Virus record (IMG/VR): IMGVR_UViG_3300027833_000011
Length of the DNA: 64,000 nucleotides
From: a virus
Lineage: Duplodnaviria; Caudoviricetes
Direction: 5' to 3' (one strand)
A program made the position numbers and the translations under genes. The notes below the pieces were generated by a model. The model saw only the letters and a list, made by a program, of their open reading frames with translations. It searched no databases and was not told the origin of the DNA. Every line of letters begins with the position of its first letter. Position 1 is the first letter of the stretch. Below, piece by piece: positions 9,250 through 57,505 of the stretch.

Positions 9250-9990
9250 ATGAAGATTGATAGAGTTTATGTCATCACAATGGATATGAGTGATGAATAC
9301 AAAGATGAGTTATTTGAGAGAGTGTTAAATTTACCACTACCTTCAAATACACCTGTTGAGTTTAAACAAGGGTTTCCAGGTAAGGATTTATTGGAAAGAC
9401 CTGAAGACTTTCCTGAGTATCGTATATACCCACATTGGAACCTTAACAACCCAGAGGGTTGGTGGTGGTGGCAAAGACCAGCGTTATCAGGTGAAGCGGG
9501 TGGTATGATATCACACACAATGTGTTGGGAAGATGCGTATGAGAAGGGGTATGAAAATATTATGATTATTGAAGATGACTTTACGGTCGAAGAACCTATT
9601 GATTGGGGTATCTTTAAAGAACTTGATGGTTATGAATGGGATTTATGTTTAATGGCTCACAATTCATTACACGAACATTTTTCAGATATTATGAAACCTT
9701 TAAATATTGGTAGAGAACATTTTATCAGACCAACGTTCTTTTATAATACTCATACTTATATACTTTCTTCGGGAGGTATTAAGAAATTAGTTGAGGACCA
9801 TTTAGATGTGTTAAAACAAAATATTATAGTATCTGACGAATTTTTATCTGCAGTTACTTCATCACATCCAAGACCTGATTTAAGAGAGATGTACATAACT
9901 AATATGTCAGCGGTTGCTACAAAAGTTAATTATACAGGACAAACAAGAAGTGAAGGTTTGGGTAATTCTTTAACCGAGACTGAAAAGTAA
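9250..9990 (+). CDS. Glycosyltransferase family 25, resembling the C-terminal domain of collagen galactosyltransferase COLGALT
   Basis: VYVITM, RPALSGEAGGMISHTMCW, IMIIEDD, WDLCLM, YNTHTYILS..G.KKL, SDEFLS...HP. Confidence 0.75.
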   Translation: MKIDRVYVITMDMSDEYKDELFERVLNLPLPSNTPVEFKQGFPGKDLLERPEDFPEYRIYPHWNLNNPEGWWWWQRPALSGEAGGMISHTMCWEDAYEKGYENIMIIEDDFTVEEPIDWGIFKELDGYEWDLCLMAHNSLHEHFSDIMKPLNIGREHFIRPTFFYNTHTYILSSGGIKKLVEDHLDVLKQNIIVSDEFLSAVTSSHPRPDLREMYITNMSAVATKVNYTGQTRSEGLGNSLTETEK

Positions 9991-19638: not shown

Positions 19639-19686
19639 CATAACATAAAAAAGTGATTAACTTTTACATAAATAAAAACAATTGTA

Positions 19687-19860: not shown

Positions 19861-19861
19861 G

Positions 19862-20041: not shown

Positions 20042-20042
20042 C

Positions 20043-24162: not shown

Positions 24163-24181
24163 CGATTTTTATGTATCTTTG
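24151..24181 (+). promoter_or_regulatory. Bacteroidota sigma70-type promoter
   Basis: TTTG 24151-24154, 19-nt spacer, TATCTTTG 24174-24181. Confidence 0.7.
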
Positions 24182-24218
24182 TACTTCATTAGAACATTTA
24201 ATAATAATAATTTAAGTC

Positions 24219-24347
24219 ATGGCAGCAAACACCAACACATTTAAAAAGGCTAAGAAAAAAAGACCGGGAGTTCACTCTAAGAATAACAATTCTGCGAGTA
24301 AAAACTCACCAAATTATCAGAAAAAATACAGAGGTCAAGGAAGATAG
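24219..24347 (+). CDS. Very basic 42-aa microprotein (not in the ORF track)
   Basis: Hand translation MAANTNTFKKAKKKRPGVHSKNNNSASKNSPNYQKKYRGQGR; has its own promoter and terminator. Confidence 0.65.
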   Translation: MAANTNTFKKAKKKRPGVHSKNNNSASKNSPNYQKKYRGQGR

Positions 24348-24352
24348 TCTAA

Positions 24353-24389
24353 AAAAATATCCCTCTAATTAATTTAGGGGGATATTTTT
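24353..24389. terminator. Intrinsic terminator
   Basis: aaaaatatccctctaa-ttaat-ttagggggatattttt. Confidence 0.75.
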
Positions 24390-24424
24390 GTTAAAAATAG
24401 ATATTTATTAATAAACGTATTAGT

Positions 24425-25873
24425 ATGAATTTTGAAAAATTAATCAGAGAAATGATTTTGGAAGATGCTCGTTTAGAGCACCTACTAAAAACACATGCTC
24501 ACAAGGATATAGTGAAAGTTAATAAGGAGACAGGAAAGAGAAAAGTCAAAAAGGCTCCTCTTACTTCAGACCAAATGATGATTATGGTTGGTAACGACCC
24601 AACATCAAGAATTGATGGTTTAGACTTAACACAACTACACGATGATGAAACATTAAAGAATATTTCTCCTGATTCTGTTAAAAAAACGGGTGAATACACT
24701 CAATGGATGGTTAAACAGTATAAGATGTTACCACAGATGACTGAGATTCCTTATGGTGAATCGGGGTATGATTCAGAATTATCAGAAAAACAAAGATTAT
24801 TTTTTGAGGATTTATATAAAACTAAAGAAGACTTAATAAAGTTTCACAGGTTTAAAACTACGGATAAGATTGAAGAGGCTGATATTAACAAATATACGAT
24901 TCGAGAGTTAGAGACACTTGTCGCTCCATTATCTTTGGAGTTAGCTACGAGTACTAAGGCTGAGAGAAAATCGTCTATGTTACATCCAGGTGCTGAATTT
25001 ATGGTGGAAACAGATAAATGGTATGTGGTTAAAATACATCGTAATGATGAGTTAGGAAAAGAAGCTGCCGTGTTCTACGGAGGGTCACAAAAACGTCCAT
25101 CAGAAGGGGAAACTAGTTGGTGTACATCGGCTCCTGGTATGAATTACTACTTTAACTACTTAAAAACAGGTCCTTACTACGTTTTTTTAGATAAAACAGA
25201 CACTAAAACGGGTAATGTTTCAGGATTACCAACACATAGATACCAATTCCATTTTGAGTCTAATCAGTTTATGGATGTTAATGATAGACAGATTGACTTA
25301 GTTAAATTCTTTAATGATAATCCTTCTTTAAAAGATGAGTTTAAAACGGTTATTACGTCACACTTCAGTAAAGCAAAAGGTAAGAGTTCTTCAAAAACTG
25401 TTGAGGTAAGTTACCCTTCAGATGGAATATCTAAGTTAATTGGATTGTATGGGTTTGATGATTTCTTCGAGGGTTTACCGTCTGATTTAGAAAGTTTTGA
25501 ATTTGAGTATTCAAACTCAGGGTATGGAAGTAATAAAGATGTTCAACCACCTAAATTAGCAATACCTGATAGTATTGGTAGGTTTACAAGTCTAAAAGTA
25601 TTGTTCTTCGATAACTGTATTGTGTCAATACCTGAAAGTATTTCTAAAATACCTTTAACTATCCTTTCAATACCAAACAACAAAGGTGTTAAATTACCTG
25701 ATTCGTTGGCTGACATGATTAACAACGGTACTTTAAATATTTTAGGTTTATCAGGTTCTGGATATACAATGGAGACATTACCACCAAAAATTGTTGAAGC
25801 GATTAAGAAAAGAGAAAGTGAAAGCGATACTAACCCAAGCGAAGAGACTGCGTTCTTAGTGATATTAGATTAG
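24425..25873 (+). CDS. Phage protein with a YGG..T.WCT..GPYYV domain and C-terminal leucine-rich repeats
   Basis: AAVFYGG..GETSWCTS..YLKTGPYYVF; IPDSIGRFTSLKVLFFDN, IPESISKIPLTILSI, LPDSLADM. Confidence 0.7.
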   Translation: MNFEKLIREMILEDARLEHLLKTHAHKDIVKVNKETGKRKVKKAPLTSDQMMIMVGNDPTSRIDGLDLTQLHDDETLKNISPDSVKKTGEYTQWMVKQYKMLPQMTEIPYGESGYDSELSEKQRLFFEDLYKTKEDLIKFHRFKTTDKIEEADINKYTIRELETLVAPLSLELATSTKAERKSSMLHPGAEFMVETDKWYVVKIHRNDELGKEAAVFYGGSQKRPSEGETSWCTSAPGMNYYFNYLKTGPYYVFLDKTDTKTGNVSGLPTHRYQFHFESNQFMDVNDRQIDLVKFFNDNPSLKDEFKTVITSHFSKAKGKSSSKTVEVSYPSDGISKLIGLYGFDDFFEGLPSDLESFEFEYSNSGYGSNKDVQPPKLAIPDSIGRFTSLKVLFFDNCIVSIPESISKIPLTILSIPNNKGVKLPDSLADMINNGTLNILGLSGSGYTMETLPPKIVEAIKKRESESDTNPSEETAFLVILD

Positions 25874-25877
25874 TAGT

Positions 25878-26150
25878 TTGATGGATAATGAGGTTATTAT
25901 TTACGTTAAAAACTTAAAAAAGTATTTAGTTAATTCCGCTAAGGCGAGAGAATTATTTCTCAGTAACGCCATTGACATTGATGACTTTATAAATGAGGTT
26001 GTTAAAGTGGCGAGAAACAATGTTAAGAAAGGTAAAGACCCACAACTCACACAAAAACAGTACGAAGAAGTACGTTTCAAACTCACAGACAAAGAATCCG
26101 ACATTCCTATGATAGAGATAAAAGGGTTCCCTCCATTTTTTTTAAATTAG
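25878..26150 (+). CDS. Hypothetical protein
   Basis: 90-aa ORF. Confidence 0.6.
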   Translation: MMDNEVIIYVKNLKKYLVNSAKARELFLSNAIDIDDFINEVVKVARNNVKKGKDPQLTQKQYEEVRFKLTDKESDIPMIEIKGFPPFFLN

Positions 26151-26195
26151 TGTTGTTTATTAATCAGTTTTTCTTATATTTCTAAAAAAGATTTA

Positions 26196-27602
26196 ATGAA
26201 AAACAGGTTAACTTTAGTGACGGTTGCGACTCATAAGACGCATGAGTTAGATAGGTTTATCGAATCCGCTAAATATCACGGATATGACTATGTTATATTA
26301 GGATTAGGGATGGAATGGACTGGTGGTGTTGCCGACAATGGTCGATTAGTATTTCCCGGTGGAGGAATGAAAGTGAATCTTCTAAAGAATTATCTATCCA
26401 CATATAAGGGGTCGAATAGCGATGTAATACTTTTTACAGACTCCTACGATGTTGTATTCAACGAAAAACCCGATGAGTTATTAAGTAGATGGGACGGCAA
26501 TGTATTATTTACCGCAGAAAAAACTTGTTGGCCTGACAGGGATTTGGAAGAAGAATATCCAAATTCACCTTACGGTTATAAATATTTAAATAGTGGTGGT
26601 TTTATTGCGACAGTTGGTGACCTAATTAATCTAACGGAAACTAAGTGTATGGACCACGACGATGACCAATTATATTATACACTAAAGTTTTTAAATGGTG
26701 ACAAGATTAATTTGGACTATAATTTAGACATATTTCAAACTCTTAATCAGTCTATTGATGATGTTGAAATACATGACGGTAGAGTTTATAATAAAGTGAC
26801 TAAAACGTATCCTATAGTTATTCATGCTAATGGAGGTGTTGGCCCAAGGACTTATTTAAACAAATTTTATAACGATATGAGACAACCAGAGCCTACATTA
26901 AAAAGATTAAACGGTAATGAAAGAGTGTGTTTACAAATGATATTTGATAAGAAACATACAAATCCGTCAATTATGGTTGAAAGTCTTTCCTACTTAACCT
27001 ATGATAAAAGATTAATTGATTTATCGTTTTATAATAATAACAAAGAAAATCAATGGGCTATTGAGAACTACATTAAAAATAATGAAGACAAATATAACTC
27101 AATCACACAGGTTTATGACGATAGTAAAGGGGTTTATGAGTTAAGAGAAATCTTATTTAAAAACGCCACACAATATGATGGGGATTATGTGTTACATAAT
27201 GACTCGTCGTTTATTATGAAAAATAAAGATATCATTCAATTATTAATGTCAGAAGGTAAGGATATTATCTCACCAATGATTAATACTGAACAAACGTTTA
27301 ACTCTAACTTTTGGGGTGGTGTTTCAGATGATGGGTATTATTTAGAGAGTTACGATTACCACGATATTAGAACGTACAATAAAAAAGGAACTTTTGTTGT
27401 TCCATTTATTAGTGGGGTGATGATGTTTAGTAGTGAAATATTAAAAACTGATTTATTTGTTACGATGTTTAATAATTTAGAAAAAGAAATTCTTAATTAT
27501 TATGGTGAAGACTACATGGTTGTATTGGCAAATACTATCAGAGACAAGAATTTGTTTATGTATGTAACCAATAAAAGATATTATGGAAAATTTTTTAATT
27601 AA
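26196..27602 (+). CDS. PLOD/LH3 (procollagen lysyl hydroxylase/glycosyltransferase)-like protein: GT plus accessory domains, no oxygenase domain
   Basis: LVTVAT, LGLGMEWTGG, GGGMKVNLLK, LFTDSYDVV, AEKTCWPD, YLNSGGFI, DDDQLYYT, HANG; accessory domain IISPMI..SNFWGGVSDDGYY..S.DY..GTFVVPFIS. Confidence 0.85.
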   Translation: MKNRLTLVTVATHKTHELDRFIESAKYHGYDYVILGLGMEWTGGVADNGRLVFPGGGMKVNLLKNYLSTYKGSNSDVILFTDSYDVVFNEKPDELLSRWDGNVLFTAEKTCWPDRDLEEEYPNSPYGYKYLNSGGFIATVGDLINLTETKCMDHDDDQLYYTLKFLNGDKINLDYNLDIFQTLNQSIDDVEIHDGRVYNKVTKTYPIVIHANGGVGPRTYLNKFYNDMRQPEPTLKRLNGNERVCLQMIFDKKHTNPSIMVESLSYLTYDKRLIDLSFYNNNKENQWAIENYIKNNEDKYNSITQVYDDSKGVYELREILFKNATQYDGDYVLHNDSSFIMKNKDIIQLLMSEGKDIISPMINTEQTFNSNFWGGVSDDGYYLESYDYHDIRTYNKKGTFVVPFISGVMMFSSEILKTDLFVTMFNNLEKEILNYYGEDYMVVLANTIRDKNLFMYVTNKRYYGKFFN

Positions 27603-27603
27603 A

Positions 27604-27636
27604 TTTGGACTACAAAGAAAAAAAGGCTTATCTTTG
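27604..27636 (+). promoter_or_regulatory. Bacteroidota sigma70-type promoter
   Basis: TTTG 27604-27607, 21-nt spacer, TATCTTTG 27629-27636. Confidence 0.75.
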
Positions 27637-27663
27637 TAGTGAACAAAAAGAGAAATAGAAATT

Positions 27664-28473
27664 ATGGCAGACTTATTAAAATATCACAAATCTTTACCTT
27701 TAACAGAACAAGAAATATTAGACAGAGCACCATCTGTTTTTGCAACAGAGGCTTCAGGTCACGTTTCAGAGAAGTACACTTTTATTCCAACAACTCAAGT
27801 TATTGAGGATATGGAGGAGTTAGGTTGGAAAGTATATTCGGCGGAACAAAGAACTGCTAGAACTAAGGTTAGAAACACACACACGAAACACTTATTACGT
27901 TTTCGTAACGACACTCTAACTGAAGTGTTAGGTTGTATTCCTGAGATTACACTAACCAACTCACACGACGGTCGAAACGCATTTCAATTCTATGTTGGAC
28001 TATACAGACCTGATATTCAAAGTTCTTTTGTAATTCGTCACGAAACGTTGAATGGTTTACGTATCAAACACCAATGGTACACGTTAAATGAGGTAAGAGA
28101 AGTAACACAAAAAGTTATTAATCACCTACCAGTTTTAATCGAACAGGTACAATTATTAAACAACACGACAATCGGTAAAACAGAACAAAGAGAATACGCG
28201 ATGAGAGCTATGATGACACGTTGGGGTAAAGACTACCCTTCAATTTTACATAGAGTCGTTATGAATCCGATTAAAGGTGAAACAGTGACATTGTGGGACG
28301 CATTTAACAACGTACAAAACCATATTCTAAACGGTGGTATCACTTACACATTAGCGTCTAAACGACAACAAACTGTAAGAGCGATTACAAACGTCGACTT
28401 AAAAATTAAAATCAACGAAGAGTTGTGGGAAGTGACCCAAGGGTATGTCAAACTAAAACAAAAAGTATATTAA
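27664..28473 (+). CDS. DUF932/DUF945-family protein
   Basis: RAPSVFA..VSEKYTFIPT..GW..HTKHLLRFR..PEITLTNSHDG..F..GLYR. Confidence 0.85.
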   Translation: MADLLKYHKSLPLTEQEILDRAPSVFATEASGHVSEKYTFIPTTQVIEDMEELGWKVYSAEQRTARTKVRNTHTKHLLRFRNDTLTEVLGCIPEITLTNSHDGRNAFQFYVGLYRPDIQSSFVIRHETLNGLRIKHQWYTLNEVREVTQKVINHLPVLIEQVQLLNNTTIGKTEQREYAMRAMMTRWGKDYPSILHRVVMNPIKGETVTLWDAFNNVQNHILNGGITYTLASKRQQTVRAITNVDLKIKINEELWEVTQGYVKLKQKVY

Positions 28474-28474
28474 C

Positions 28475-28500
28475 AAAAAGGGACCTCGAGTCCCTTTTTT
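28475..28500. terminator. Intrinsic terminator
   Basis: AAAAAGGGAC-CTCGA-GTCCCTTTTTT. Confidence 0.85.
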
Positions 28501-28529
28501 TATTCGGTAAAAACTCTTATCTTTACTCC

Positions 28530-30188
28530 ATGGTTGAAAATCTGTATAAGAATATTTTTGATGAACATAGGATTACGTATCACGAAGTGTCTAATGATGC
28601 GACTTTAATGCGTAACATAGAGGACCATAAAACCAATGCGTCTAGAATGGATGGGTATAGTAAACATAAGTTATATTATTTTACCGTATCTAAATATTCA
28701 GAAAATAAAGAAGACTTTATTGATGAATACGGTAATATGTTATGTGACTTGGAGAATACTCGAAGAACTGTTGTCGTTGAAAAAGAGGGGGATAAGGTTA
28801 GGTTATCTTTTTACTATTATAAGAAATTTAGGAAGGTGGGTAAGTTGTATTTTGCTAAGATGTACGACCGACATTATCTGACCTATAATTTAAAGACTAA
28901 TAATTTTTATATGACAAACGTTATGAAGTCGATAGGTTATAGAAGAAGTAAACGAATACGTTGTAACCCAACACATAATATTAGTCGAGTGGTTGAACAC
29001 ATTCATGACTTTAAGTTTACTAATGATGATTCAGAATATCTTAAAGTGTTTATGAGGGCTTTAGACCCTGAAACTAACTATGGTAAAGACAAGTACTTAA
29101 CATTTGAAGAGGCATTCATAAGATTCTTTGTTGGTAGAAATGGTATTAAAGGTCCAAATCATATGACATCGTTAATATTGAGAAATTATCCAGGTAAGAA
29201 GTCCTTAAAGAAGAATGGGTATAATCTAATACATTCAATATTAGATAATGTTGGGTTGAAAAGTAAGTACTTCGTTAGTTTAATGAACAACTATAAACCT
29301 GATTTAAGTTATTTGATTCAATATGCTAACCTATTAGGGTTAAAATATGTTAAGAGTATTAATAAGGAGTTTTTTAAGAAAGAGAGGGCTCCGTATGAAA
29401 CCTTTGTTGATTTAAAGAAAAAGTATTACGAAGATACGGAAAATTATCCTATTTACCAAAACATTACTGATTATGATAGAAAAAACATAGTTAAGGTTAT
29501 CAACGATTTTACGGTTACGAGTCCTGACACACCAATTAATAGTACACGTTCTATGAATATCACAGGGCTGATAAATGACCATATTAGGATTATGGATAAC
29601 TTAAGAACGTTTGAGGAGGATATTAAATTTAAGTCTAAGACTTATTCAGAATTTGAGCAAGAACACGTTAACTATAGTGAGAAGTATTCGTTATATAGAA
29701 ATTCTGAGGAGATTTACTACCAATATGATGAACAAATAATTAATGGTTTAAAGAATTCACAAAAAGGGTATGAGTACGTATTATTATCGAATGATATGGA
29801 CTACATAAATGAGTCTACACATCAAAACAATTGTGTTAGAACTTATATTGATAAGTTTGATTCTATAATCATTTCTGTTAGACTTGGGGGTAAAAGAATA
29901 ACGACTGAATTCACATACAAAGGTGATTGTATTCAAAAGAGAGGGTCTTATAATAGTGAAGTTGACGAATCTTTTAATGAGGGTATTATGGAGTTGGAAC
30001 GTATTATGAAAACTATTTATTTGAGTGGGGGGTTAAAACAACCAACTATCAAAATAAAGAATAAACTTAACGGAGACGAAAAACACTATACTATTAAAGA
30101 GTTAAAAACGAATGGGTATAGACGTTCTAAAGGTAATGAAGGTTTTTTGGATTTTGTCGACGATGAATTAGATTTTATGTTAATATGA
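28530..30188 (+). CDS. PcfJ-like domain protein (start at 28530 rather than 28425)
   Basis: DHIRIM..H..; C-terminal ESTHQNNCVRTY..IISVR..TTEF..Q.RG..N. Confidence 0.7.
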   Translation: MVENLYKNIFDEHRITYHEVSNDATLMRNIEDHKTNASRMDGYSKHKLYYFTVSKYSENKEDFIDEYGNMLCDLENTRRTVVVEKEGDKVRLSFYYYKKFRKVGKLYFAKMYDRHYLTYNLKTNNFYMTNVMKSIGYRRSKRIRCNPTHNISRVVEHIHDFKFTNDDSEYLKVFMRALDPETNYGKDKYLTFEEAFIRFFVGRNGIKGPNHMTSLILRNYPGKKSLKKNGYNLIHSILDNVGLKSKYFVSLMNNYKPDLSYLIQYANLLGLKYVKSINKEFFKKERAPYETFVDLKKKYYEDTENYPIYQNITDYDRKNIVKVINDFTVTSPDTPINSTRSMNITGLINDHIRIMDNLRTFEEDIKFKSKTYSEFEQEHVNYSEKYSLYRNSEEIYYQYDEQIINGLKNSQKGYEYVLLSNDMDYINESTHQNNCVRTYIDKFDSIIISVRLGGKRITTEFTYKGDCIQKRGSYNSEVDESFNEGIMELERIMKTIYLSGGLKQPTIKIKNKLNGDEKHYTIKELKTNGYRRSKGNEGFLDFVDDELDFMLI

Positions 30189-48897: not shown

Positions 48898-51714
48898 ATG
48901 GCTAAGAACATAATTATCACACCGAATTTAACAGGGACAGATAATCCAAACATAGCTATCACCAATGGAAATGAAGAGATTGTCATCGGCTTAAACGCCG
49001 GTGGCTCTCTTATCTTCCAAGATGGTGGTGGAGCTACGTTATTGGAACTGGACTCTAATGGTAACGCCACAGTAAAGAACCAAAACCTTAAAACTAATCA
49101 GTTTACAGTAAACTCACAAGACGCTTTCGACGAGTCCCTTTATGTAGGTCCATCAGGACACTTAAAAGGACAGAAAGGTATCAAAGGAAACATAGGACCC
49201 ACCGGAGCTCAAGGAGCGAAAGGAGTAATTGGGGCAAAAGGTTTGAAAGGATACATTGGTTCCGTAGGGGTGGTAGGTGCCCAAGGTGCTCAGGGTACTC
49301 AAGGACAAGTAGGTGCAACTGCACCACAAGGTCCAAAAGGCCCAATAGGAAATGCAGGTCCAATAGGACCCGTAGGACCAAAAGGAGGACAAGGTACTCA
49401 AGGACCTAAAGGTTACGTAGGTAATCAAGGGAGTAAAGGAGTAACAGGACCTAAAGGTCTAAAAGGAGGAGTAGGTCTACAAGGACCAAAAGGTGCTTCA
49501 CCTCAAGGACCACAAGGACCGCAAGGACCTCAAGGACCACAAGGACCGCAAGGACCTAAAGGTTATAAAGGGATAAAAGGTGCGACAGGGAATGTCGGAC
49601 CAACAGGTTATAAAGGTATCGCGGGTACTAAAGGTAACGAAGGACCCATAGGGGACAGAGGAGCCACAGGACTTAAAGGATACAAAGGTATTACAGGACC
49701 TAAGGGTCAGACGGGTAATAAAGGACCCAAAGGTAATGCCGGTGACCAAGGACCTACTGCATCGAAAGGTGTGTTAGGTAATAAAGGTACTAAAGGTAAT
49801 AAAGGTGTCATTGGCTCGAAAGGGTATAAGGGCAACAGAGGAACTCAAGGACCAAAAGGATATGAACCGAAAGGACCGAAAGGATACCAAGGACCGAAAG
49901 GATACAAAGGTATCAAAGGAAATAAAGGTATTAAAGGTATTACAGGACCAGGTGGACCGAGAGGTATACAAGGTGGTGGTGGTGACTTAGGACCTACGGG
50001 AACTGCAGGTATCAACGGACCAAAAGGACCAAGAGGTGTTCAAGGACCTGTCGGTACTCAAGGACCAAAAGGTTATAAGGGTGTCAAAGGTATCAAAGGA
50101 CCTCAGGGTACAAAAGGACCTCAGGGAGACCAAGGAGGACCAGGTGCTAAAGGTGTTATTGGAGGCCAAGGTAATAAAGGTATAAAAGGTAACGCAGGAC
50201 CAAAAGGTTATATTGGTTCTTCTATTAAAGGTAATAGAGGAGGACAAGGACCAACAGGTTATAAAGGTATCAAAGGTAATAAAGGTGTTAAGGGTATCAA
50301 AGGAAACTTTGGACCACAAGGACCTACAGGACTAAAAGGAAACCAAGGAGGACAAGGTGCTAAAGGATATGCTGGAGCTACAGGAACTAAAGGTAACCGA
50401 GGTGGTACTGGAGGTTCTGGAGACAAAGGTGTTACAGGACCAGGTGGACCAACAGGTGGAAAAGGTATTAAAGGTAACATAGGTGGCCAAGGAGCAAGAG
50501 GTAATACAGGAGCCCAAGGTTATCAAGGAGCAAGAGGTACTACAGGACTTAAAGGAAATAAAGGTATTAAAGGTTATCAAGGACCAGGTGGACCAACAGG
50601 TGGTAAAGGTATTAAAGGTAATATCGGACCAGGTGGACCAACAGGGCCAGGAGGTGATAGAGGACCAGGAGGTGATACAGGTGGTAAAGGTTACAGAGGT
50701 GACCAAGGACCTGTAGGACAGAAAGGTTATAAAGGAGCACCAGGTGGTAAAGGTATCAAAGGTAACATAGGTGGTCAAGGAGCGAGAGGTCCACAAGGAG
50801 GACAAGGGTCTCAAGGACCACGAGGTGGAACAGGACCAAAAGGACCTAAAGGTTACAAAGGTAATGCTGGTAACAAAGGTTATCAAGGTGCTAAAGGTAT
50901 CAAAGGTAATAAAGGAACTAAGGGTTATACAGGTACTCAAGGGTTGAGTGGTGACAAAGGTTATATAGGTGGACCAGGAGGACAAGGACCAGCTGGAGGT
51001 AATAATACGACTAAAGGTGGTAGAGGAGCTACAGGTTCTTCTCCAAAAGGTTATATTGGAGCACAAGGTAACAAAGGTGTTAAAGGTTTTATAGGTAATC
51101 AAGGACCGGGAGGTGACATATATTTGGTATCAAATTTCCCTGATGCACCAAGTGGACCAACAGGTGATAGAGGACCTACAGGTTCTAATGGTACATCTAA
51201 AGGACCAAAAGGATATGCAGGACCTTTAGGTGCTAAAGGTAATCAAGGACCAAAAGGACCAACGACTTTCGGAAGCAAAGGTAAGAGAGGTGCAAAAGGT
51301 ACTGGAGGACCAAAAGGACCTACAGGTTATAAAGGTATTAGAGGGCCGAATGGTTATAAAGGACCAAAAGGACCTACAGGAAATACATCTGATGCAAGAT
51401 TGAAAGAAAACATTAAAGAGTTAACAGGTGGTATTGAAAAAATATCAAAACTTAGAGGTGTTAAATTTGATTGGGTAGAAGGTTCTATACATAATGTACA
51501 CGAAGTTAAAGGTAGAGATGCTGGTTTTATCGCTCAAGAAGTTAATGAGGTTTTACCTGAGTTGACTAATATAATGAATGAAGAGAATGGTACGATGCAA
51601 GTTAACTACGCTAAGATGACTTCAGTATTAATTTCAGCGCTGAGAGAACAGAGGGAAATCGTTAAAGAATATACTGATAAACTTGAAATAATTAAATTAA
51701 ATCGTTCGAAATAA
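48898..51714 (+). CDS. Collagen-like fibre protein 1 with a C-terminal peptidase S74 intramolecular chaperone
   Basis: Gly-X-Y from ~49147 to ~51384; SDARLKENI..LRGVKFDW..GFIAQEV..VNY. Confidence 0.92.
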   Translation: MAKNIIITPNLTGTDNPNIAITNGNEEIVIGLNAGGSLIFQDGGGATLLELDSNGNATVKNQNLKTNQFTVNSQDAFDESLYVGPSGHLKGQKGIKGNIGPTGAQGAKGVIGAKGLKGYIGSVGVVGAQGAQGTQGQVGATAPQGPKGPIGNAGPIGPVGPKGGQGTQGPKGYVGNQGSKGVTGPKGLKGGVGLQGPKGASPQGPQGPQGPQGPQGPQGPKGYKGIKGATGNVGPTGYKGIAGTKGNEGPIGDRGATGLKGYKGITGPKGQTGNKGPKGNAGDQGPTASKGVLGNKGTKGNKGVIGSKGYKGNRGTQGPKGYEPKGPKGYQGPKGYKGIKGNKGIKGITGPGGPRGIQGGGGDLGPTGTAGINGPKGPRGVQGPVGTQGPKGYKGVKGIKGPQGTKGPQGDQGGPGAKGVIGGQGNKGIKGNAGPKGYIGSSIKGNRGGQGPTGYKGIKGNKGVKGIKGNFGPQGPTGLKGNQGGQGAKGYAGATGTKGNRGGTGGSGDKGVTGPGGPTGGKGIKGNIGGQGARGNTGAQGYQGARGTTGLKGNKGIKGYQGPGGPTGGKGIKGNIGPGGPTGPGGDRGPGGDTGGKGYRGDQGPVGQKGYKGAPGGKGIKGNIGGQGARGPQGGQGSQGPRGGTGPKGPKGYKGNAGNKGYQGAKGIKGNKGTKGYTGTQGLSGDKGYIGGPGGQGPAGGNNTTKGGRGATGSSPKGYIGAQGNKGVKGFIGNQGPGGDIYLVSNFPDAPSGPTGDRGPTGSNGTSKGPKGYAGPLGAKGNQGPKGPTTFGSKGKRGAKGTGGPKGPTGYKGIRGPNGYKGPKGPTGNTSDARLKENIKELTGGIEKISKLRGVKFDWVEGSIHNVHEVKGRDAGFIAQEVNEVLPELTNIMNEENGTMQVNYAKMTSVLISALREQREIVKEYTDKLEIIKLNRSK

Positions 51715-54662
51715 TGGCACTACAAAAAGGAAACAAAGGGATACATATATTCCCAAATAGAGTAGGTACGAATGAACCTAAAATAGAACTTTATCAAGGT
51801 TCTACTACGTATACACTAGAGGTAGAAGACAATACTAATGATGTTGTTATATTCTTAAATGGTACAGAGGTTGCTCGTATGAAATCATCAGGTGATGAAA
51901 GATTTCAAATTGTTGGAGACCTAATAATTGACGGAGATTTAAGAGACTCAAGTGGTAACGTAATCGTAACTCAATCAGGTATATACAACGGAACATTTCA
52001 AGGTACTACAGGTGACAGAGGACCTCAGGGACCTCAAGGTAACCAAGGACCTAAGGGAATAAAAGGACCAAAAGGTAACTTTGGACCTACAGGTCAGAAA
52101 GGACTTAAAGGTATTGCTGGTAATAAAGGTAATAAAGGTACTAAAGGTAATAATTCACCTAAAGGTGTTATTGGAGATAACGGACCAAGAGGAAATGACG
52201 GACCGCAAGGACCGCAAGGACCTCAAGGTGACAAGGGTATTAAAGGTAACTTAGGTGATAAGGGTGTAAAAGGTAACCGTGGATACCAAGGTGGAAACGG
52301 AGACAAAGGACCTATCGGAGCTAAAGGTTATAAAGGAACCAAAGGTATTAAAGGTAACGTTGGTAACAAAGGTATCAAAGGAGTTAAAGGTAATATCGGA
52401 GGTAACGGAGATTTAGGACCAACAGGTTCTAAAGGACTTAAAGGTGTTTTAGGTGTTAAGGGTTATACCGGACAACAAGGACCACAAGGACCTCAAGGAC
52501 CTAAAGGTTATCAACCAACAGGACCAATTGGACCAAAAGGTAATAGAGGATATCAAGGTGCTATTGGTGACAAAGGTTACCAAGGAGGACAAGGTGTCTC
52601 ACCTAAAGGACCAAAAGGTGGGAATGGTGATACAGGACCACAAGGACCTCAGGGTAATAAAGGACCGACAGGACCTAAAGGATATAAAGGTGTCGAAGGT
52701 GGACAATCATCTTCGGGTGTAGGTGTTATTACAGGACCTACAGGGCAGAAAGGTATCACAGGACCGCAAGGACCTACAGGACTGCAAGGACCAATTGGAA
52801 CACAAGGACCTCAAGGACCTAAGGGTTATAGAGGTGCTACGGGTCAGAAAGGATATGCTATCAATGATGACCCTACAACTTCGGGGCTAACGGCTCCTAA
52901 AGGACCAAAAGGACCACAAGGTTACATTGGTGTTACAGGACCAAAAGGTGGTACCGGTGATGGTGGAGATAGAGGACCTCAGGGAACTACAGGTAATGCT
53001 GGTTCAAAAGGTCAGATAGGGACACAAGGTGCTAAAGGTTATAAAGGTAATATTGGTGGACCTGGAGATAAAGGTTATACAGGTGGAAAAGGACCTAACG
53101 CAGCTGCGGGACCAAAAGGACCTAAAGGTAATGTTGGAAACAAAGGTGTAACAGGACCAGTTGGACCACAAGGACCTACAGGACCAATTGGGACTAAAGG
53201 TAATATTGGTAATAAAGGTGTTGTAGGAACCAAAGGTAACAAAGGTATCAAAGGACAAAAAGGAGCATCTCCTCAGGGACCTAAGGGTTACAGAGGACCA
53301 CAAGGTGGTCTAGGAAGTCAAGGACTACGAGGTGGAACAGGACCAAAAGGACCAAAAGGTTACAAAGGTAACAAAGGTGTTAAGGGTTATTTAGGTACCA
53401 AAGGAAACAAAGGTGTCAAAGGATATCAACCAGGTGGACCGCAAGGACCTACAGGGACTAAAGGAAATAGAGGTACTACGGGACCACAAGGACCTACAGG
53501 ACCTCAAGGAAATCAAGGTGGACAAGGTGGTCAGGGACCAAAAGGATATATAGGACCTTCATATAAAGGACCTACAGGTTATAAAGGTGTGGTATCAACT
53601 ATAGGAGACAGAGGTGCTACGGGACCAAAAGGGCCAAAAGGTTATAAAGGTAACGCAGGACCAAAAGGTTATAAAGGTATCAAAGGAAACAAAGGTGTCA
53701 AAGGATATCAACCACAAGGACCTACAGGAGATAAAGGGTACACAGGTGCTAAAGGACAAAAAGGTAATGTTGGACCTACAGGTCCTACAGGACCAACAGG
53801 TTCTAATGGTGCTAAAGGTAACAGAGGTGGTTTAGGACCTCAGGGACCAAAAGGTGTTAAAGGTAATAGAGGTAATACAGGACCAAAAGGACCGAAAGGA
53901 AACAAAGGTACCAAAGGAAACAAAGGTTACAAAGGTAATATCGGACCAGGTGGACCAACAGGACCAAAAGGCGTTAAAGGTAATAGAGGTAACTTTGGAC
54001 CAAACGTAGGACCAAGAGGACCTCAAGGTGGACAAGGACCAAGAGGATACCAAGGTAATTTTGGACCTCAGGGACCAACAGGTGGACAAGGTGGTTCAGG
54101 AGCCGGTGGAGGAACAGGACAAAAAGGTGGTACTGCCGCGGGTCTTAAAGGACCAAAAGGTTACGCAGCGTCTATTTCTTCTTTTGGTGGTTCAGGTGGA
54201 CCAACAGGTGCACAAGGTTTAAGAGGACCTCAAGGTTACCAAGGTTTAAGAGGACCTACAGGAGCTGCCGGTGGAGGTGGAGGAAGTGGACCAACAGGTG
54301 GTGGTTCATCATCCGAAGGACCATCCCTTGGTCGCTCTGATAAGAGACTTAAGTTAGACGTTAACTTAATATCTAATCCATTACAAAAAATCCAAGAACT
54401 AATACCTGTCGAATATGATTGGACAGATAAAGGTTTAGAGGATGGTCTTGTAAGTGGAGCCTACGGTAAACACGATATTGGTTTTGTTGCTCAAAACGCT
54501 AAAAAAGTGATACCAACTTTAGTACATACTAAAGACACGGGTTACTTAACATTGTCATACTCTAGAGTTGTTCCATTAATCATTGAAGCGATTAAGGAAG
54601 AACAGAAAAACATTGATATGTTAGAGGAAGAAATAAATAAACTTAGACTAAACAACAATTAA
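51714..54662 (+). CDS. Collagen-like fibre protein 2 with an S74 chaperone
   Basis: Gly-X-Y ~52002-54330; SDKRLK..PVEYDW..GFVAQ..LSY. Confidence 0.92.
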   Translation: MALQKGNKGIHIFPNRVGTNEPKIELYQGSTTYTLEVEDNTNDVVIFLNGTEVARMKSSGDERFQIVGDLIIDGDLRDSSGNVIVTQSGIYNGTFQGTTGDRGPQGPQGNQGPKGIKGPKGNFGPTGQKGLKGIAGNKGNKGTKGNNSPKGVIGDNGPRGNDGPQGPQGPQGDKGIKGNLGDKGVKGNRGYQGGNGDKGPIGAKGYKGTKGIKGNVGNKGIKGVKGNIGGNGDLGPTGSKGLKGVLGVKGYTGQQGPQGPQGPKGYQPTGPIGPKGNRGYQGAIGDKGYQGGQGVSPKGPKGGNGDTGPQGPQGNKGPTGPKGYKGVEGGQSSSGVGVITGPTGQKGITGPQGPTGLQGPIGTQGPQGPKGYRGATGQKGYAINDDPTTSGLTAPKGPKGPQGYIGVTGPKGGTGDGGDRGPQGTTGNAGSKGQIGTQGAKGYKGNIGGPGDKGYTGGKGPNAAAGPKGPKGNVGNKGVTGPVGPQGPTGPIGTKGNIGNKGVVGTKGNKGIKGQKGASPQGPKGYRGPQGGLGSQGLRGGTGPKGPKGYKGNKGVKGYLGTKGNKGVKGYQPGGPQGPTGTKGNRGTTGPQGPTGPQGNQGGQGGQGPKGYIGPSYKGPTGYKGVVSTIGDRGATGPKGPKGYKGNAGPKGYKGIKGNKGVKGYQPQGPTGDKGYTGAKGQKGNVGPTGPTGPTGSNGAKGNRGGLGPQGPKGVKGNRGNTGPKGPKGNKGTKGNKGYKGNIGPGGPTGPKGVKGNRGNFGPNVGPRGPQGGQGPRGYQGNFGPQGPTGGQGGSGAGGGTGQKGGTAAGLKGPKGYAASISSFGGSGGPTGAQGLRGPQGYQGLRGPTGAAGGGGGSGPTGGGSSSEGPSLGRSDKRLKLDVNLISNPLQKIQELIPVEYDWTDKGLEDGLVSGAYGKHDIGFVAQNAKKVIPTLVHTKDTGYLTLSYSRVVPLIIEAIKEEQKNIDMLEEEINKLRLNNN

Positions 54663-54664
54663 TC

Positions 54665-57505
54665 ATGGCTAAGAATATATTAATCACACCAAATAGAACA
54701 GGAACAGAGTCTCCTGAGATATTGTTAGTAAATAACGGTACTGTAGACTCAATCTTTACAATCGGTGAGAATCTTCCATTACTTATCGGTGAAGACGGAA
54801 CTCCGGCTGCTAGTTTTAGTTCAAACGGGTTTTTAACCCCTAACGGATTTAAAATTACGGGGTCGTTAAAAGTAAGAAATGGGAGTGGAACATCCGTTAC
54901 TGTATTAGATAATACGGGAACATGGACAGGTTCATTCACAGGAATAAAAGGATACCAAGGACCGCAAGGATATAAAGGTCAAAAAGGACCACAGGGTAAT
55001 ACGGGTGACTTTGGACCACAAGGTGACAGAGGTAACCAAGGTGGTTTTGGAGACAAAGGTTATCAAGGTGGACCTGGTGATAAAGGATATCAAGGTAACA
55101 TAGGACCAAAAGGACCAAAAGGTGTTATTGGAGATAAAGGTTTCAAAGGACTTAAAGGTAATTTAGGAACTCAGGGACCCGGTGGACCAATAGGTTCTCA
55201 GGGAGCACAAGGACCTACAGGGCCGAAAGGATACATTGGTAACCAAGGTGGTATAGGACCTCAGGGTAATACAGGACCAACGGGTGACGTAGGATATACG
55301 GGACCAAAAGGTGTTGTAGGACCAGGTGGACCTACAGGGCCAAGAGGTAACCAAGGAACACAAGGTATTTCACCTAAAGGACCAAGAGGTCCTCAAGGTG
55401 AAAAAGGTGTAACAGGAACTAAAGGTTTCAAGGGTACTAAAGGTATTACCGGTGGAAGAGGACCTCAGGGTCAGACTAACACAACCAAAGGACCGATAGG
55501 TTATAAAGGTGTTATAGGTACCAAAGGACAGAAAGGTATTATTGGTTCAACTTCACAACAAGGAGACCAAGGAAACCAAGGACCTCAAGGACCGGGTGGT
55601 AGTAAAGGAGTCATAGGTGCACAAGGTGCTACAGGTGATATCGGTGTTACAGGACCAAAGGGACTTAAAGGTAATGTTGGTGCTAGAGGATACCAAGGAG
55701 GTCAAGGAGGCCAAGGAGCTCAAGGTGGTACCACTAAAGGTAATAAGGGTATTACAGGACCTAAGGGTTATAAAGGTGGAAAAGGACCTGCAGTTGCTAA
55801 TGGACCAAAAGGACCAATAGGAGGAAAAGGTATTAAAGGTGTTTCTAATGTTAGAGGAGCACAAGGAAACCAAGGACCAAAGGGTTATATCGGTATTAAA
55901 GGTGTCAAAGGTGGTGTTGGAGATAAAGGTATTACAGGACCGGGTGGACCAACAGGACCTCAAGGTGTTCAAGGTGTTCAAGGTGATAGAGGTGGAACGG
56001 GTACTTCTTATACGGGTAATATTGGAGACAAAGGTTACCGAGGAGCACAAGGATACCAAGGACCTCAAGGTGGACAAGGACCTCAAGGTGGTAATACTAA
56101 AGGTTACGTAGGTAATCAAGGACCTACAGGACCAGGTGGACCGCAAGGACCTACAGGTCAAAAAGGAGCTACAGGTAATACCGGTGGTGGTGGTGATAAA
56201 GGTTACATTGGAGTTAAAGGAAACAAAGGTGTTAAAGGTTATCAACCACAAGGACCGGGTGGACCAACAGGACCACAAGGACCTACAGGACAAAAAGGTG
56301 TTACAGGACCTACAGGACAAAAAGGTGGACAAGGAAACCAAGGTGTTAAAGGTAATGTTGGTGGGAAAGGACCAAAAGGTTATCAACCACAAGGACCTCA
56401 AGGTAATAAAGGTATCAAAGGAAATAAAGGGGTAAAAGGTAATAAAGGGTACAAAGGTACCGCTACCGTTTCGTCTTTACCTAAAGGAGACAAAGGTCTT
56501 AAAGGATACAGACATTCTACAGGACCAAAAGGTTATCAACCACAAGGACCCGTTGGAGACAAAGGTTATACAGGTGGACCTGGTGATGGCGGACCTACAG
56601 GACCGGGAGGACCAACAGGTGGAAAAGGTGTTAAAGGTAACATAGGTGGTCAAGGTGCCAAAGGTAATGCTGGTGACACAGGTTATCAAGGAGCACAAGG
56701 ACCAAAAGGTGTTAAAGGTAATGACGTTTCTACTAAAGGACCTAAAGGTAATGTTGGAGCTAAAGGAGCTACAGGACCTACAGGACCAAAAGGTTATAAT
56801 GGACCAGGTGGAGACTTGGGTGACACACATCGAGGACCAAACGGACCTACAGGACCACAAGGTCCCCGAGGACCACAAGGTGGAGGTGGAGATAAAGGTT
56901 ATGCTGGATATACTCATTGGGTTAATTCAGGTAGTCCAAAACCGGTAGGACCTAAAGGTTTTAAAGGTACCAAAGGTGTCAAAGGATATACAGGACCTAA
57001 AGGTAATAGAGGTAATACAGGACCTAAAGGTTCTCAAGCACCACAAGGACCAAAGGGACTTAAAGGACCTTATACATTGGCGGCAACTCAAGGACCGATT
57101 GGTGACGCTGGAGCTTCAGGAAACACTAAAGGTTATAGAGGACTTCAGGGACCTAAAGGTTTTCGAGGAAACAAAGGTATTAAAGGATATGCCGGACCAG
57201 CTTCTGATAGAAGAGCTAAGACTAATGTTGAGTTAATTACTGATTCGTTAGACAAAGTATCTAAAATTAGAGGGGTTGAATTCCTATGGAAATCTGATTA
57301 TAAACCTAAAACTTTAGAAACACCAACGGATATTGGGGTTATTGCACAAGAGTTAAAAGAAGTCTTACCTGAATTAGTTATTGAAGGTAATGACGGATTC
57401 TTAAGAGTAAATTATCCACAAATCACATCTTTATTAGTCAATGCGTTTAACGAACAAAACAGTAAGTTAAATATGATTAAGAAAGATATCGATTCGATGT
57501 TATAA
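54665..57505 (+). CDS. Collagen-like fibre protein 3 with an S74 chaperone
   Basis: Gly-X-Y ~54941-57200; SDRRAKTNV..IRGVEF.W..GVIAQEL..VNY. Confidence 0.92.
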   Translation: MAKNILITPNRTGTESPEILLVNNGTVDSIFTIGENLPLLIGEDGTPAASFSSNGFLTPNGFKITGSLKVRNGSGTSVTVLDNTGTWTGSFTGIKGYQGPQGYKGQKGPQGNTGDFGPQGDRGNQGGFGDKGYQGGPGDKGYQGNIGPKGPKGVIGDKGFKGLKGNLGTQGPGGPIGSQGAQGPTGPKGYIGNQGGIGPQGNTGPTGDVGYTGPKGVVGPGGPTGPRGNQGTQGISPKGPRGPQGEKGVTGTKGFKGTKGITGGRGPQGQTNTTKGPIGYKGVIGTKGQKGIIGSTSQQGDQGNQGPQGPGGSKGVIGAQGATGDIGVTGPKGLKGNVGARGYQGGQGGQGAQGGTTKGNKGITGPKGYKGGKGPAVANGPKGPIGGKGIKGVSNVRGAQGNQGPKGYIGIKGVKGGVGDKGITGPGGPTGPQGVQGVQGDRGGTGTSYTGNIGDKGYRGAQGYQGPQGGQGPQGGNTKGYVGNQGPTGPGGPQGPTGQKGATGNTGGGGDKGYIGVKGNKGVKGYQPQGPGGPTGPQGPTGQKGVTGPTGQKGGQGNQGVKGNVGGKGPKGYQPQGPQGNKGIKGNKGVKGNKGYKGTATVSSLPKGDKGLKGYRHSTGPKGYQPQGPVGDKGYTGGPGDGGPTGPGGPTGGKGVKGNIGGQGAKGNAGDTGYQGAQGPKGVKGNDVSTKGPKGNVGAKGATGPTGPKGYNGPGGDLGDTHRGPNGPTGPQGPRGPQGGGGDKGYAGYTHWVNSGSPKPVGPKGFKGTKGVKGYTGPKGNRGNTGPKGSQAPQGPKGLKGPYTLAATQGPIGDAGASGNTKGYRGLQGPKGFRGNKGIKGYAGPASDRRAKTNVELITDSLDKVSKIRGVEFLWKSDYKPKTLETPTDIGVIAQELKEVLPELVIEGNDGFLRVNYPQITSLLVNAFNEQNSKLNMIKKDIDSML

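Follow-up and report, generated by a model that had tools for sequence, protein, structure and literature searches.

A tailed phage encodes a predicted PLOD-type collagen glucosyltransferase and a lysyl hydroxylase as separate genes

The plus-strand ORF at positions 26196..27602 of a 64,000-nucleotide stretch of tailed-phage DNA (IMG/VR record IMGVR_UViG_3300027833_000011, Caudoviricetes; the whole stretch is hereafter referred to as the window) encodes a 468-residue protein related to PLOD/LH3-type enzymes. Our analyses confirm that this is a two-domain protein, comprising a PLOD-type GT domain (residues ~1–230) and an accessory (AC) domain (residues ~240–468) but no C-terminal Fe2+/2OG lysyl hydroxylase (LH) domain, with the stop located at the AC/LH boundary. 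Based on sequence comparisons and structure modeling, the protein is probably a collagen galactosyl-hydroxylysine (Gal-Hyl) glucosyltransferase that would act last in a phage pathway of LH, GT25 and GT, with the phage's own collagen-like tail fibres as target.

The ORF encodes PLOD-type GT and AC domains

The ORF opens with an ATG and its product ends in ...LFMYVTNKRYYGKFFN. The Pfam model GT_PLOD (PF25342) covered residues 2–226 (E 1.5e-64; 218 bits versus a cut-off of 27), and in a phmmer search of PDB sequences residues 4–466 aligned with residues 15–492 of the human LH3 chain (E 2e-55), i.e. with the GT and AC domains, the alignment ending short of the LH domain. The same search matched the 458-residue R699 protein of mimivirus (E 4e-51). 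Human LH3/PLOD3 (PDB 6FXR and others), which acts both as a lysyl hydroxylase and as a Gal-Hyl glucosyltransferase, thus aligns with the phage protein end to end over GT and AC at ~29% identity, while insertions in the LH3 GT domain are missing from the phage protein. The AC domain additionally matched the GT1 domain of COLGALT1 (E 5e-15); the likeness of the LH3 AC domain to this GT1 domain has already been published (PMC12003778).

An AlphaFold model of the protein (pLDDT 90.1, pTM 0.87; C-terminal half mostly at pLDDT 83–98) superposed on full-length LH3 over ~487 columns with a TM score of 0.88 (query-normalised) and on R699 with TM scores of 0.80 by query and 0.85 by target. In Foldseek, the model also matched the isolated LH3 GT domain (6WFV; E 2e-21, 40% identity). 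Sequence and model agree on AC as a second Rossmann-like domain whose packing follows that in LH3 and R699. An earlier note, made from the letters of the window, had described a PLOD-like protein with GT and accessory domains lacking an LH domain and a C-terminal half with the PLOD accessory fold; the PF25342 match and the LH3 alignment bear out the former and the superpositions the latter, and the downstream gene is, as it had stated, a DUF932 gene (Pfam, E 2e-19). As there is no LH domain in the same chain, we do not class the protein as a PLOD proper. NCBIfam offered no model for the GT+AC, GT25 or LH enzymes, and no signal peptide or membrane segment was detected in any of the three proteins.

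The hydroxylase is a separate gene upstream of the window

Neither Pfam, tblastn nor an LH profile revealed an HxD..H 2OG-oxygenase domain in the ORF, as the earlier note had observed. Throughout the window, no 2OG oxygenase was found by Pfam in ORFs of at least 120 amino acids, and the LH profile matched none of 701 stop-to-stop segments. A tblastn search of all six frames, using the phage LH described below and ten animal PLOD C-termini as queries, likewise uncovered no LH/2OG-oxygenase similarity, the only weak matches, at 27546–27599, pairing the end of the AC domain with the first residues of the PLOD C-terminal cuts. On these searches, we reject a frameshifted or remnant LH downstream of the GT+AC gene, a possibility that the earlier note had raised.

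A separate hydroxylase outside the window had been offered as one way to account for the missing domain, and such a gene was indeed found. While an exact-protein look-up with the first ORF of the window gave no match, that with its amidase gene retrieved a contig (L067), positions 7701–20930 of which equal positions 1–13230 of the window with 0 mismatches over 13,230 nt, and which adds 7.7 kb upstream. This added sequence carries a stand-alone LH gene encoding 229 amino acids at L067:6761–7450, corresponding to -939..-250 relative to the window start. Its product matched PF25238 (E 4e-9) and PF03171 (E 1e-5) in Pfam and aligned with residues 503–714 of the LH3 chain (E 3.7e-34) and with the LH domain of mimivirus L230 (E 2e-27). 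The iron triad (HxD...H) and the Arg that binds 2OG are intact, H137, D139, H186 and R196 being invariant among 26 homologues; judging from its sequence, the protein would also possess the core features of a double-stranded β-helix and the PLOD-specific region ahead of this core.

The phage thus has PLOD as two genes, split where AC meets LH and separated by 27 kb, which together cover the whole length of LH3 (GT+AC, 15–492; LH, 503–714). This accounts for the missing LH domain of the GT+AC protein: the hydroxylase has its own gene, 27 kb upstream and just beyond the window. Whereas LH3 is a single polypeptide of the ER, the two phage enzymes carry no signal peptide, indicating a cytoplasmic rather than an ER setting. 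A complex prediction for the AC domain (residues 232–468) and the 229-residue LH scored 0.00, below the mark, which is uninformative on binding either way.

Residues for metal, donor and acceptor binding are conserved

In alignments with R699 and LH3, the phage protein keeps each of 13 catalytic and ligand-binding positions, which mutagenesis or crystal structures of R699/LH3 have tied to Mn2+, to UDP, to the glucose of the donor or to the acceptor sugar (PMC12279948, PMC9546862). W41, K59, D82/Y84/D85, E108 and W112 correspond to R699 W48, K62, D83/Y85/D86, E114 and W118, and N132, D156/D157/Q158, H210 and N212 to R699 N138, D162/D163/Q164, H216 and N218. The Mn2+-binding DxxD motif is D82-S-Y-D85, with H210 as the third ligand (LH3 D112, D115 and H253); motif and His are invariant in 41 sequences. 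LH3 residues W75, K89, Y114, N165, D190-D191 and Q192, which bind UDP and sugar, are represented by W41, K59, Y84, N132, D156, D157 and Q158, the gating W145 by W112, and the acceptor-side E141 and N255 by E108 and N212. All 13 residues are invariant in 12 homologues from the phage clade, with identities down to 42%, and 12 of the 13 are still invariant over the 41 sequences.

R699 forms an antiparallel homodimer, which, including F102, is required for its activity. Two of its dimer residues (F102, F204, T243, I244, V395 and R396) were mapped: F102, in the dimer loop, falls within a five-residue insertion that is missing from the phage protein, and F204 aligns with Y198. With the F102 insertion missing, the phage protein may deviate from R699 in its regulation and oligomeric state.

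A stand-alone GT25 protein may provide the acceptor

A 246-residue stand-alone GT25 protein is encoded on the plus strand at 9250..9990 (PF01755, E 3.8e-9) and is a candidate hydroxylysine galactosyltransferase resembling the GT2 domain of COLGALT. Among solved structures, it was matched best by the GT2 domain of human COLGALT1 (E 7e-7), with bacterial GT25 scoring E 0.4. The COLGALT1 match is modest, and we count this against the pathway. The EDD metal motif is kept in the phage GT25 (cf. PMC12003778); this motif may be common to GT25 proteins generally. In addition, the phage protein aligned (E 1e-11) with the GT25 domain of ~720-residue relatives, in which GT25 is fused N-terminal to GT+AC; one such protein falls within the sister clade. 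Judged from sequence, this GT25 would generate the acceptor on which the GT+AC enzyme acts.

Alternatively, the GT+AC enzyme could glycosylate hydroxylysine directly, either yielding Glc-Hyl, as L230 does, or as a dual Gal/Glc transferase, in which case GT25 would serve another glycan, e.g. of the host envelope or the virion. We consider this unlikely. A precedent exists in the Glc-Hyl of mimivirus collagen, a product of L230 according to work cited in PMC9546862; moreover, the phage GT25 gene, at a distance from the rest of the pathway, directly follows an SbcC-like gene, and GT25 was not detected in two of four sister-clade records that contain GT+AC, LH and collagens. However, these two records are incomplete fragments (41–66% estimated completeness), GT25 synteny is kept in the phage clade and other viruses carry GT25 fused to GT+AC. 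Furthermore, the residues of R699 that contact the second sugar (E114, W118 and N218), as well as their LH3 equivalents, are conserved in the phage protein, and R699 uses Gal-Hyl while being inactive on Glc-Hyl collagen (PMC9546862).

Lys-rich collagen-like tail fibres are the predicted substrates

Three collagen-like tail fibres, each with a C-terminal S74 intramolecular chaperone, are encoded on the plus strand: fibre 1 (938 residues) at 48898..51714 (Pfam: Collagen, E 6e-73; Peptidase_S74, E 1e-15), fibre 2 (982 residues) at 51714..54662 and fibre 3 (946 residues) at 54665..57505, the latter two likewise assigned by Pfam. Lys is the dominant Y residue of their G-X-Y triplets, occupying 31–37% of Y positions (85/233, 83/232 and 69/222 triplets in fibres 1, 2 and 3, respectively), and is found at X in 1/233, 0/232 and 0/222 triplets. 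Pro is nearly confined to X; the fibres therefore offer no prolyl 4-hydroxylation site.

The earlier note had called GPT very common in these collagens and had raised Y-position Thr, Tyr or unmodified Lys as possible acceptors. GPT is present, at 13–17 triplets per fibre, with Thr taking 13–17% of Y positions, but Gly-X-Lys is far commoner (69–85 of 222–233). Thr O-glycosylation is known for bacterial collagen-like proteins such as BclA of Bacillus, a point that, together with the GPT content, speaks for Thr. Against this, the premise that no hydroxylase exists proved false once the upstream LH gene was found, Lys predominates at Y, the pocket residues fit those of Gal-Hyl glucosyltransferases and use of Thr is known for no member of the family. 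As the phage encodes Lys-rich collagens along with an LH and a COLGALT-like GT25, and as all donor and acceptor pocket residues of R699/LH3 are kept, another acceptor is not needed, and we regard action on Thr, Tyr or unmodified Lys of the fibres as highly improbable.

We favor the Gal-Hyl pathway, whose donor sugar, acceptor, sequence of steps and fibre target are inferred. First, the 229-residue, Fe2+/2-oxoglutarate-dependent LH would convert Y-position Lys of Gly-X-Lys-Gly to hydroxylysine; second, the stand-alone GT25 (9250–9990) would add galactose; third, the GT+AC enzyme would add glucose to Gal-Hyl. The latter is predicted to be a soluble, cytoplasmic, retaining enzyme that depends on Mn2+ and UDP-glucose and combines a catalytic GT-A domain with a non-catalytic AC domain. 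The three Lys-rich fibres would receive these modifications in the infected bacterium while still unfolded, ahead of S74-driven trimerisation.

The pathway genes are scattered but co-occur in relatives

The GT+AC gene sits among non-structural genes (Dam methylase, DUF932, PcfJ-like, nuclease and thioredoxin). The LH, GT25 and GT+AC genes are not adjacent, ~10 kb and 17 kb lying between them, and the fibre genes are at least 21 kb away; the link between these scattered genes is drawn from homology and from their joint presence rather than from operon structure. No shared promoter motif was evident upstream of the pathway genes, TATTTAT occurred 18 times on the plus strand of the window versus 17.1 expected from base composition, and sigma-70 and terminator scans gave no excess over shuffled sequences.

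The neighbourhood of the GT gene is syntenic in relatives at 94, 55 and 47% identity, and the LH...GT25 layout is kept in a relative with an 80% identical LH. In viral records of the sister clade, collagen/S74 fibres were present in five of five, stand-alone LH-type ORFs in four of eight fragments and GT25 in two of four. A search of the sister-clade records for an NCLDV capsid gave no match; as the control was also without a match, this result is uninformative.

The GT+AC protein could, in principle, have a target other than the fibres, such as a different protein of the virion, a surface glycan of the host or, in a kojibiose-type reaction, free sugars, or serve mainly as a structural or scaffold protein. 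Synthesis of kojibiose out of UDP-Glc and glucose is described for R699 (PMC12279948), and the location of the phage gene among non-structural genes would fit such a role. Collagen/S74 fibres, however, accompanied GT+AC in every related viral record searched, LH-type genes were found as well, and the invariant catalytic residues argue against a purely structural role; we therefore deem these options very unlikely.

The two-domain GT+AC arrangement is a common form among environmental viruses. Window positions 24000–30000 had no megablast match in cultured phages, and tblastn matched only GT-domain-only proteins of cyanophages and roseophages. In IMG/VR, a scan with the GT+AC protein as a single query returned nothing and an alignment-based scan returned only relatives of at most 36% identity, indicating that the window's own clade is missing from the scanned IMG/VR collection.

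Comparison with known systems

The two-domain form was already known from R699 of Acanthamoeba polyphaga mimivirus (PDB 9DYT, 9DZS and 9E92), a collagen galactosylhydroxylysyl glucosyltransferase that likewise consists of GT and AC without LH (458 versus 468 residues; PMC9546862, PMC12279948). Overall identity to the phage protein is ~28%, with a gapless alignment of the GT domain over query residues 105–215. Mimivirus, like the phage, encodes its own collagens, an LH and a GT25-like protein. Its LH is, however, fused to another GT (L230), whereas that of the phage stands alone, and the phage enzyme is predicted to act on tail fibres that carry S74 chaperones. Moreover, mimivirus infects an amoeba and the phage a bacterium, so that no host enzyme would be available to supply Gal-Hyl. 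On co-expression in E. coli, L230 hydroxylated the mimivirus collagen L71, and R699 made in E. coli was active (PMC9546862).

A further comparison is with human COLGALT1/GLT25D1 (PDB 9EVJ, 8ZGC) and mimivirus R655. The GT1 domain of COLGALT1 resembles the phage AC domain and its catalytic GT2 domain the phage GT25. COLGALT1 thus fuses an AC-like domain to GT25; the phage instead joins this domain to the glucosyltransferase and has GT25 as a separate protein. Fusions of all three domains, in the order GT25-GT-AC, occur in some giant-virus proteins. Cyanophage GT_PLOD proteins (PHROG phrog_61, annotated '2OG-Fe(II) oxygenase'; e.g. of S-CAM9, S-PRM1 and S-8S53) are 35–37% identical over query residues 4–229, a match spanning 38–50% of the query. 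The phrog_61 profile couples a PLOD-type GT to a 2OG oxygenase, with the oxygenase first, unlike the order in PLOD; these proteins lack the AC domain, and none has been characterised.

Relation to animal PLODs

In an unrooted tree, animal PLODs form a separate clade (support 99) and the phage clade falls outside it, the direction of descent not being readable from such a tree; in this tree, which lacks R699, the phage clade is also apart from giant-virus MAG forms. The suggestion of the earlier note that a two-domain phage form bears on the origin of animal PLODs is weakly supported: the form was already known from R699, and the tree is unrooted. All that the data show on the origin of PLOD is that viral forms with two domains do not nest within the animal clade.

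Tentatively, an animal-type pathway for collagen lysine, self-contained and divided among three single-function genes (minimal LH, GT25 and GT+AC), might be spread through a broad set of large marine tailed phages and serve to decorate three very long collagen-like fibres with Glc-Gal-Hyl in the bacterial cell. The unfused genes might then be close to the parts that were joined into animal PLOD (GT-AC-LH) and COLGALT (AC-GT25), instead of reflecting later fission of captured animal genes.

Significance

Prokaryotic collagens are, according to a review, mostly neither hydroxylated nor glycosylated (PMC8968730), and in the literature searched we found no description of hydroxylysine glycosylation of collagen in a bacteriophage. 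The phage setting, rather than the two-domain form itself, therefore appears to be new. One large marine tailed phage encodes three predicted enzyme types together with their likely substrates, in a bacterial host unable to supply the intermediates; as everything is encoded by the phage, the system is genetically closed and small (229, 246 and 468 amino acids, all predicted soluble). If active, these proteins would be convenient enzymes for producing hydroxylated and glycosylated recombinant collagen in the bacterial cytoplasm, would provide a clean system in which to study how specific the steps of hydroxylysine glycosylation are and in what order they occur and would represent a case of glycosylated phage receptor-binding fibres.

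Domain structure, fold and catalytic residues of the GT+AC protein

The ORF at 26196–27602 (+ strand) encodes a 468-residue protein with an ATG start and the C-terminal end ...MYVTNKRYYGKFFN. Pfam assigns residues 2–226 to the GT_PLOD glycosyltransferase (GT) domain (PF25342; E 1.5e-64). In a phmmer search of all PDB chains, residues 4–466 align with chain residues 15–492 of human LH3 (E 2e-55), a PLOD collagen enzyme with GT, accessory (AC) and lysyl hydroxylase (LH) domains in one chain; the aligned span comprises GT and AC and ends short of the LH domain. The search also matched R699, a mimivirus two-domain GT+AC glucosyltransferase of 458 residues (E 4e-51), and, with residues 312–464, the GT1 domain of the human collagen galactosyltransferase COLGALT1 (E 5e-15). 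An AlphaFold2 model built on an input alignment of 41 sequences is confident (mean pLDDT 90.1, pTM 0.87). Because Foldseek superposes it on full-length LH3 (~487 columns, query-normalised TM 0.88, rmsd 3.2–3.3 Å) and on R699 (TM 0.80 by query, 0.85 by target), the C-terminal half models as the PLOD accessory fold. The two-domain architecture read from the sequence in the earlier note is thus upheld by Pfam, phmmer, the AlphaFold2 model and Foldseek, including the LH3 superposition that it proposed.

Experiments have established R699 as a UDP-Glc:Gal-Hyl glucosyltransferase (Hyl, hydroxylysine): it modifies Gal-Hyl both free and within collagen, accepts no other UDP-sugar and leaves Glc-Hyl collagen unmodified (PMC9546862). 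Its key residues, known from crystal structures and mutagenesis, are W48, K62, D83/Y85/D86, E114, W118, N138, D162/D163/Q164, H216 and N218 (PMC12279948). In direct alignments to R699 and LH3 (LH3 UniProt number = chain number + 23), all 13 are retained in the phage protein, as W41, K59, D82/Y84/D85, E108, W112, N132, D156/D157/Q158, H210 and N212. They are invariant in a 12-member phage clade, with identity down to 42%, and likewise across the 41 sequences, and the GT domain aligns with that of R699 without gaps from residue 105 to 215. In contrast, the R699 dimer-loop residue F102 sits in a 5-residue insertion that the phage protein lacks, and the R699 dimer mode may therefore not apply. By all sequence and fold criteria, the protein is a predicted R699-type two-domain collagen glucosyltransferase. 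It is not a PLOD proper, since a search for the fused LH domain that defines one was negative.

A separate lysyl hydroxylase gene upstream of the window

Neither tblastn, queried with the C-termini of ten animal PLODs as well as with the separate phage LH described below, nor an LH profile run against 701 stop-to-stop segments detected a hydroxylase remnant in any of the six frames of the window, and Pfam detected no 2OG oxygenase among window ORFs of at least 120 residues. The ORF was correctly described before as having no hydroxylase domain, and a frameshifted hydroxylase downstream, which would have spoken against that description, was looked for in all six frames and not found.

An exact match to the window's amidase protein (2301–3230) led to L067, a 106-kb ENA contig whose positions 7701–20930 match window 1–13230 at every one of the 13,230 nt; window coordinates therefore equal L067 coordinates minus 7700. 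At L067:6761–7450 (window -939..-250, + strand), L067 carries a gene for a stand-alone PLOD-type LH of 229 residues, matching PF25238 (an OGFOD2-like region that occurs in PLODs; E 4e-9) and PF03171 (E 1e-5). A separate hydroxylase outside the window, the first alternative offered in the earlier note, is thus present. The protein aligns with LH3 chain residues 503–714 (E 3.7e-34) and with the LH domain of mimivirus L230 (E 2e-27), which has been crystallised. Its iron triad and 2OG-binding arginine (H137, D139, H186, R196) do not vary among 26 homologues. As the GT+AC ORF ends at LH3 chain residue ~492–494 and the LH gene starts at 503, the two genes, 27 kb apart, by alignment jointly span the entire LH3 and divide it at the boundary between the AC and LH domains. 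The 3' end of the LH gene is overlapped by a Metallophos phosphoesterase gene (L067:7440–8219). LH homologues of 204–229 residues occur often in marine metagenomes, where the contigs that carry them reach 430 kb.

A GT25 protein and lysine-rich collagen fibres

The window further encodes a GT25 protein of 246 residues (9250–9990; PF01755, E 3.8e-9). Among solved structures it is closest to the GT2 domain, the catalytic one, of human COLGALT1 (E 7e-7); a bacterial GT25 scores E 0.4. The unusual EDD metal motif (PMC12003778) is kept in the phage protein (IIEDD vs VFEDD). The gene starts 1 nt past the stop of an SbcC/Rad50-like gene (780 residues, 6906–9248), an odd site for a glycosylation gene, yet one kept in relatives.

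Three tandem genes (48898–51714, 51714–54662 and 54665–57505) encode collagen-repeat proteins of 938–982 residues, whose C-terminal Peptidase_S74 chaperone domains mark them as tail fibres. The target of PLOD lysyl hydroxylases is Y-position Lys preceding Gly in G-X-Y triplets. Each fibre contains 222–233 triplets, with Lys at Y in 85, 83 and 69 and at X in 1, 0 and 0. Pro is nearly confined to X, so the fibres lack a prolyl 4-hydroxylation site. Thr or another fibre residue could be the acceptor instead, and GPT is indeed present (counts of 13–17); set beside the abundance of Y-position Lys and the PLOD-type LH, we regard this as most improbable.

Proposed glycosylation pathway

From the observed genes, domains, fold, residues, substrate composition and co-occurrence, we infer donor, acceptor, order of steps and target. 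The 229-residue LH would hydroxylate Y-position Lys of nascent fibre chains in the infected cell, GT25 would add Gal, the GT+AC protein would add Glc from UDP-Glc, and the S74 domains would drive fibre trimerisation after modification. Collagen-modifying enzymes are inactive on the folded helix (PMC8968730), and modification must therefore precede trimerisation. Because L230 hydroxylates mimivirus collagen L71 on co-expression in E. coli and R699 made in E. coli is active (PMC9546862), such a pathway is plausible in the bacterial cytoplasm. All three enzymes lack both a signal peptide and any hydrophobic segment. A promoter signal common to the pathway genes was looked for and not found. We consider successive action of LH, GT25 and the GT+AC protein on the phage's Lys-rich fibres the probable reading. 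A non-fibre target or a scaffold role, with which the invariant catalytic residues and the collagen/S74 fibres of related viral records fit poorly, appears very improbable.

Phage context and conserved gene order

Judging from its S74 fibres, a tail-tip J/tail-fibre-related protein, peptidoglycan amidases and a sigma-70 type factor, the window derives from a tailed phage. The order LRR-like ~482–483-residue protein, 89–90-residue ORF, GT+AC, DUF932 (the next gene, as the earlier note stated), PcfJ-like protein, nuclease, thioredoxin and glutaredoxin is shared with marine metagenome contigs whose GTs are 94, 55 and 47% identical, one of them a 158-kb TARA scaffold. The LH-Metallophos-amidase-GNAT-SbcC-like-GT25 layout is kept where the LH is 80% identical. 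This synteny argues that the GT+AC/LH split is old and stable rather than a recent disruption.

The two genes preceding GT+AC in every relative (24425–26150; 47–94% identity), the ~482-residue protein having relatives with weak LRR matches, may form one transcription unit with it; TATTTAT lies at 24402, 23 nt upstream of the gene for the ~482-residue protein. Between GT+AC and DUF932, an inverted repeat CTACAAAGA...TCTTTGTAG (27610–27650), which lacks a T-run, may be a hairpin or regulatory site. DUF932 and a 587-residue protein with a PcfJ-like domain (27664–30188), a pair typical of conjugative elements, directly follow the GT in all relatives. The adjacent thioredoxin and glutaredoxin genes (30824–31412), kept in relatives, probably serve nucleotide reduction, but could conceivably keep the hydroxylase iron reduced. 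The window also encodes ClpP (10596–11270), a sigma-70 family factor (12550–13341), a full DnaJ (21473–22282), a second J-domain protein (32785–33336, minus strand) and an S-adenosylmethionine synthetase C-terminal domain protein (33338–34315, minus strand). Following a J-like tail protein (37913–40429), a 2273-residue ORF without Pfam assignment (42028–48849), immediately upstream of the fibres, probably encodes a giant component of the tail or baseplate.

Relatives and phylogeny

Outside the phage clade, two-domain proteins of ~460–480 residues number in the hundreds in metagenomes and also occur in IMG/VR contigs of 42–199 kb. Among the IMG/VR records searched, which are fragments of 14–66% estimated completeness, collagen was found in 4/4, S74 fibres in 5/5 (usually three per record, ORFs up to 1773 residues), stand-alone LH-type ORFs (~205–220 residues, tandem pairs) in 4/8 and GT25 in 2/4. 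The LH-type pairs (~207 + 220 residues, ~0.5 kb apart) lie in the records behind L007, L010, L011 and L015 (G001, G002, G007 and G004); these sister-clade viruses have two copies vs one seen beside the window, and the pair may reflect duplication of a hydroxylase whose specificity has been divided.

In some relatives, including giant-virus MAGs, GT25 is fused N-terminally to GT+AC (~720 residues), and the phage GT25 aligns with the fused domain (E 6e-10 and 1e-11). This fusion supports placing phage GT25 and GT+AC in one pathway. Direct glycosylation of Hyl by the GT+AC protein would suit records in which GT25 was not seen but not the Gal-Hyl specificity of R699 or the fusion, and is unlikely; galactosylation by GT25 before glucosylation is preferred.

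Other arrangements exist. Proteins P0024, P0030, P0057, P0058 and others (~685–697 residues) fuse a PLOD-type GT to SAM-methyltransferase domains (PF13489, PF08242, PF13649), covering ~35% of the query at 39–44% identity. In cyanophages S-8S53 and S-8S55, a PLOD-type GT domain lies inside genes annotated 2OG-Fe(II) oxygenase (positions 213–417 of the 689-position PHROG profile phrog_61), which suggests an oxygenase-GT fusion in reverse order to PLOD and without AC.

The GT+AC region was used for a maximum-likelihood tree of 62 rows, in which animal PLODs were represented by residues 1–530 and GT25 fusions by the part from residue 236 onward; methyltransferase fusions and short fragments were left out. 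In this tree the phage clade holds together (SH-aLRT 99) and is sister (97) to a large environmental clade that includes the IMG/VR records. Animal PLODs group apart (99), and giant-virus MAG forms, like most GT25 fusions, fall in other parts of the tree. Regarding the suggested bearing on animal PLOD origin, the tree says no more than that the phage genes fall outside the group of sampled animals; being unrooted, it gives no direction between fusion first and fission first.

A two-domain form is nothing special in a virus: R699 has already been published, with crystal structures, and environmental viruses commonly carry proteins of this form. In the literature searched, we found no description of such a collagen-modifying system in a bacteriophage. 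What appears new is the phage setting; by sequence and fold, the protein itself is an additional, putative R699-type two-domain glucosyltransferase.
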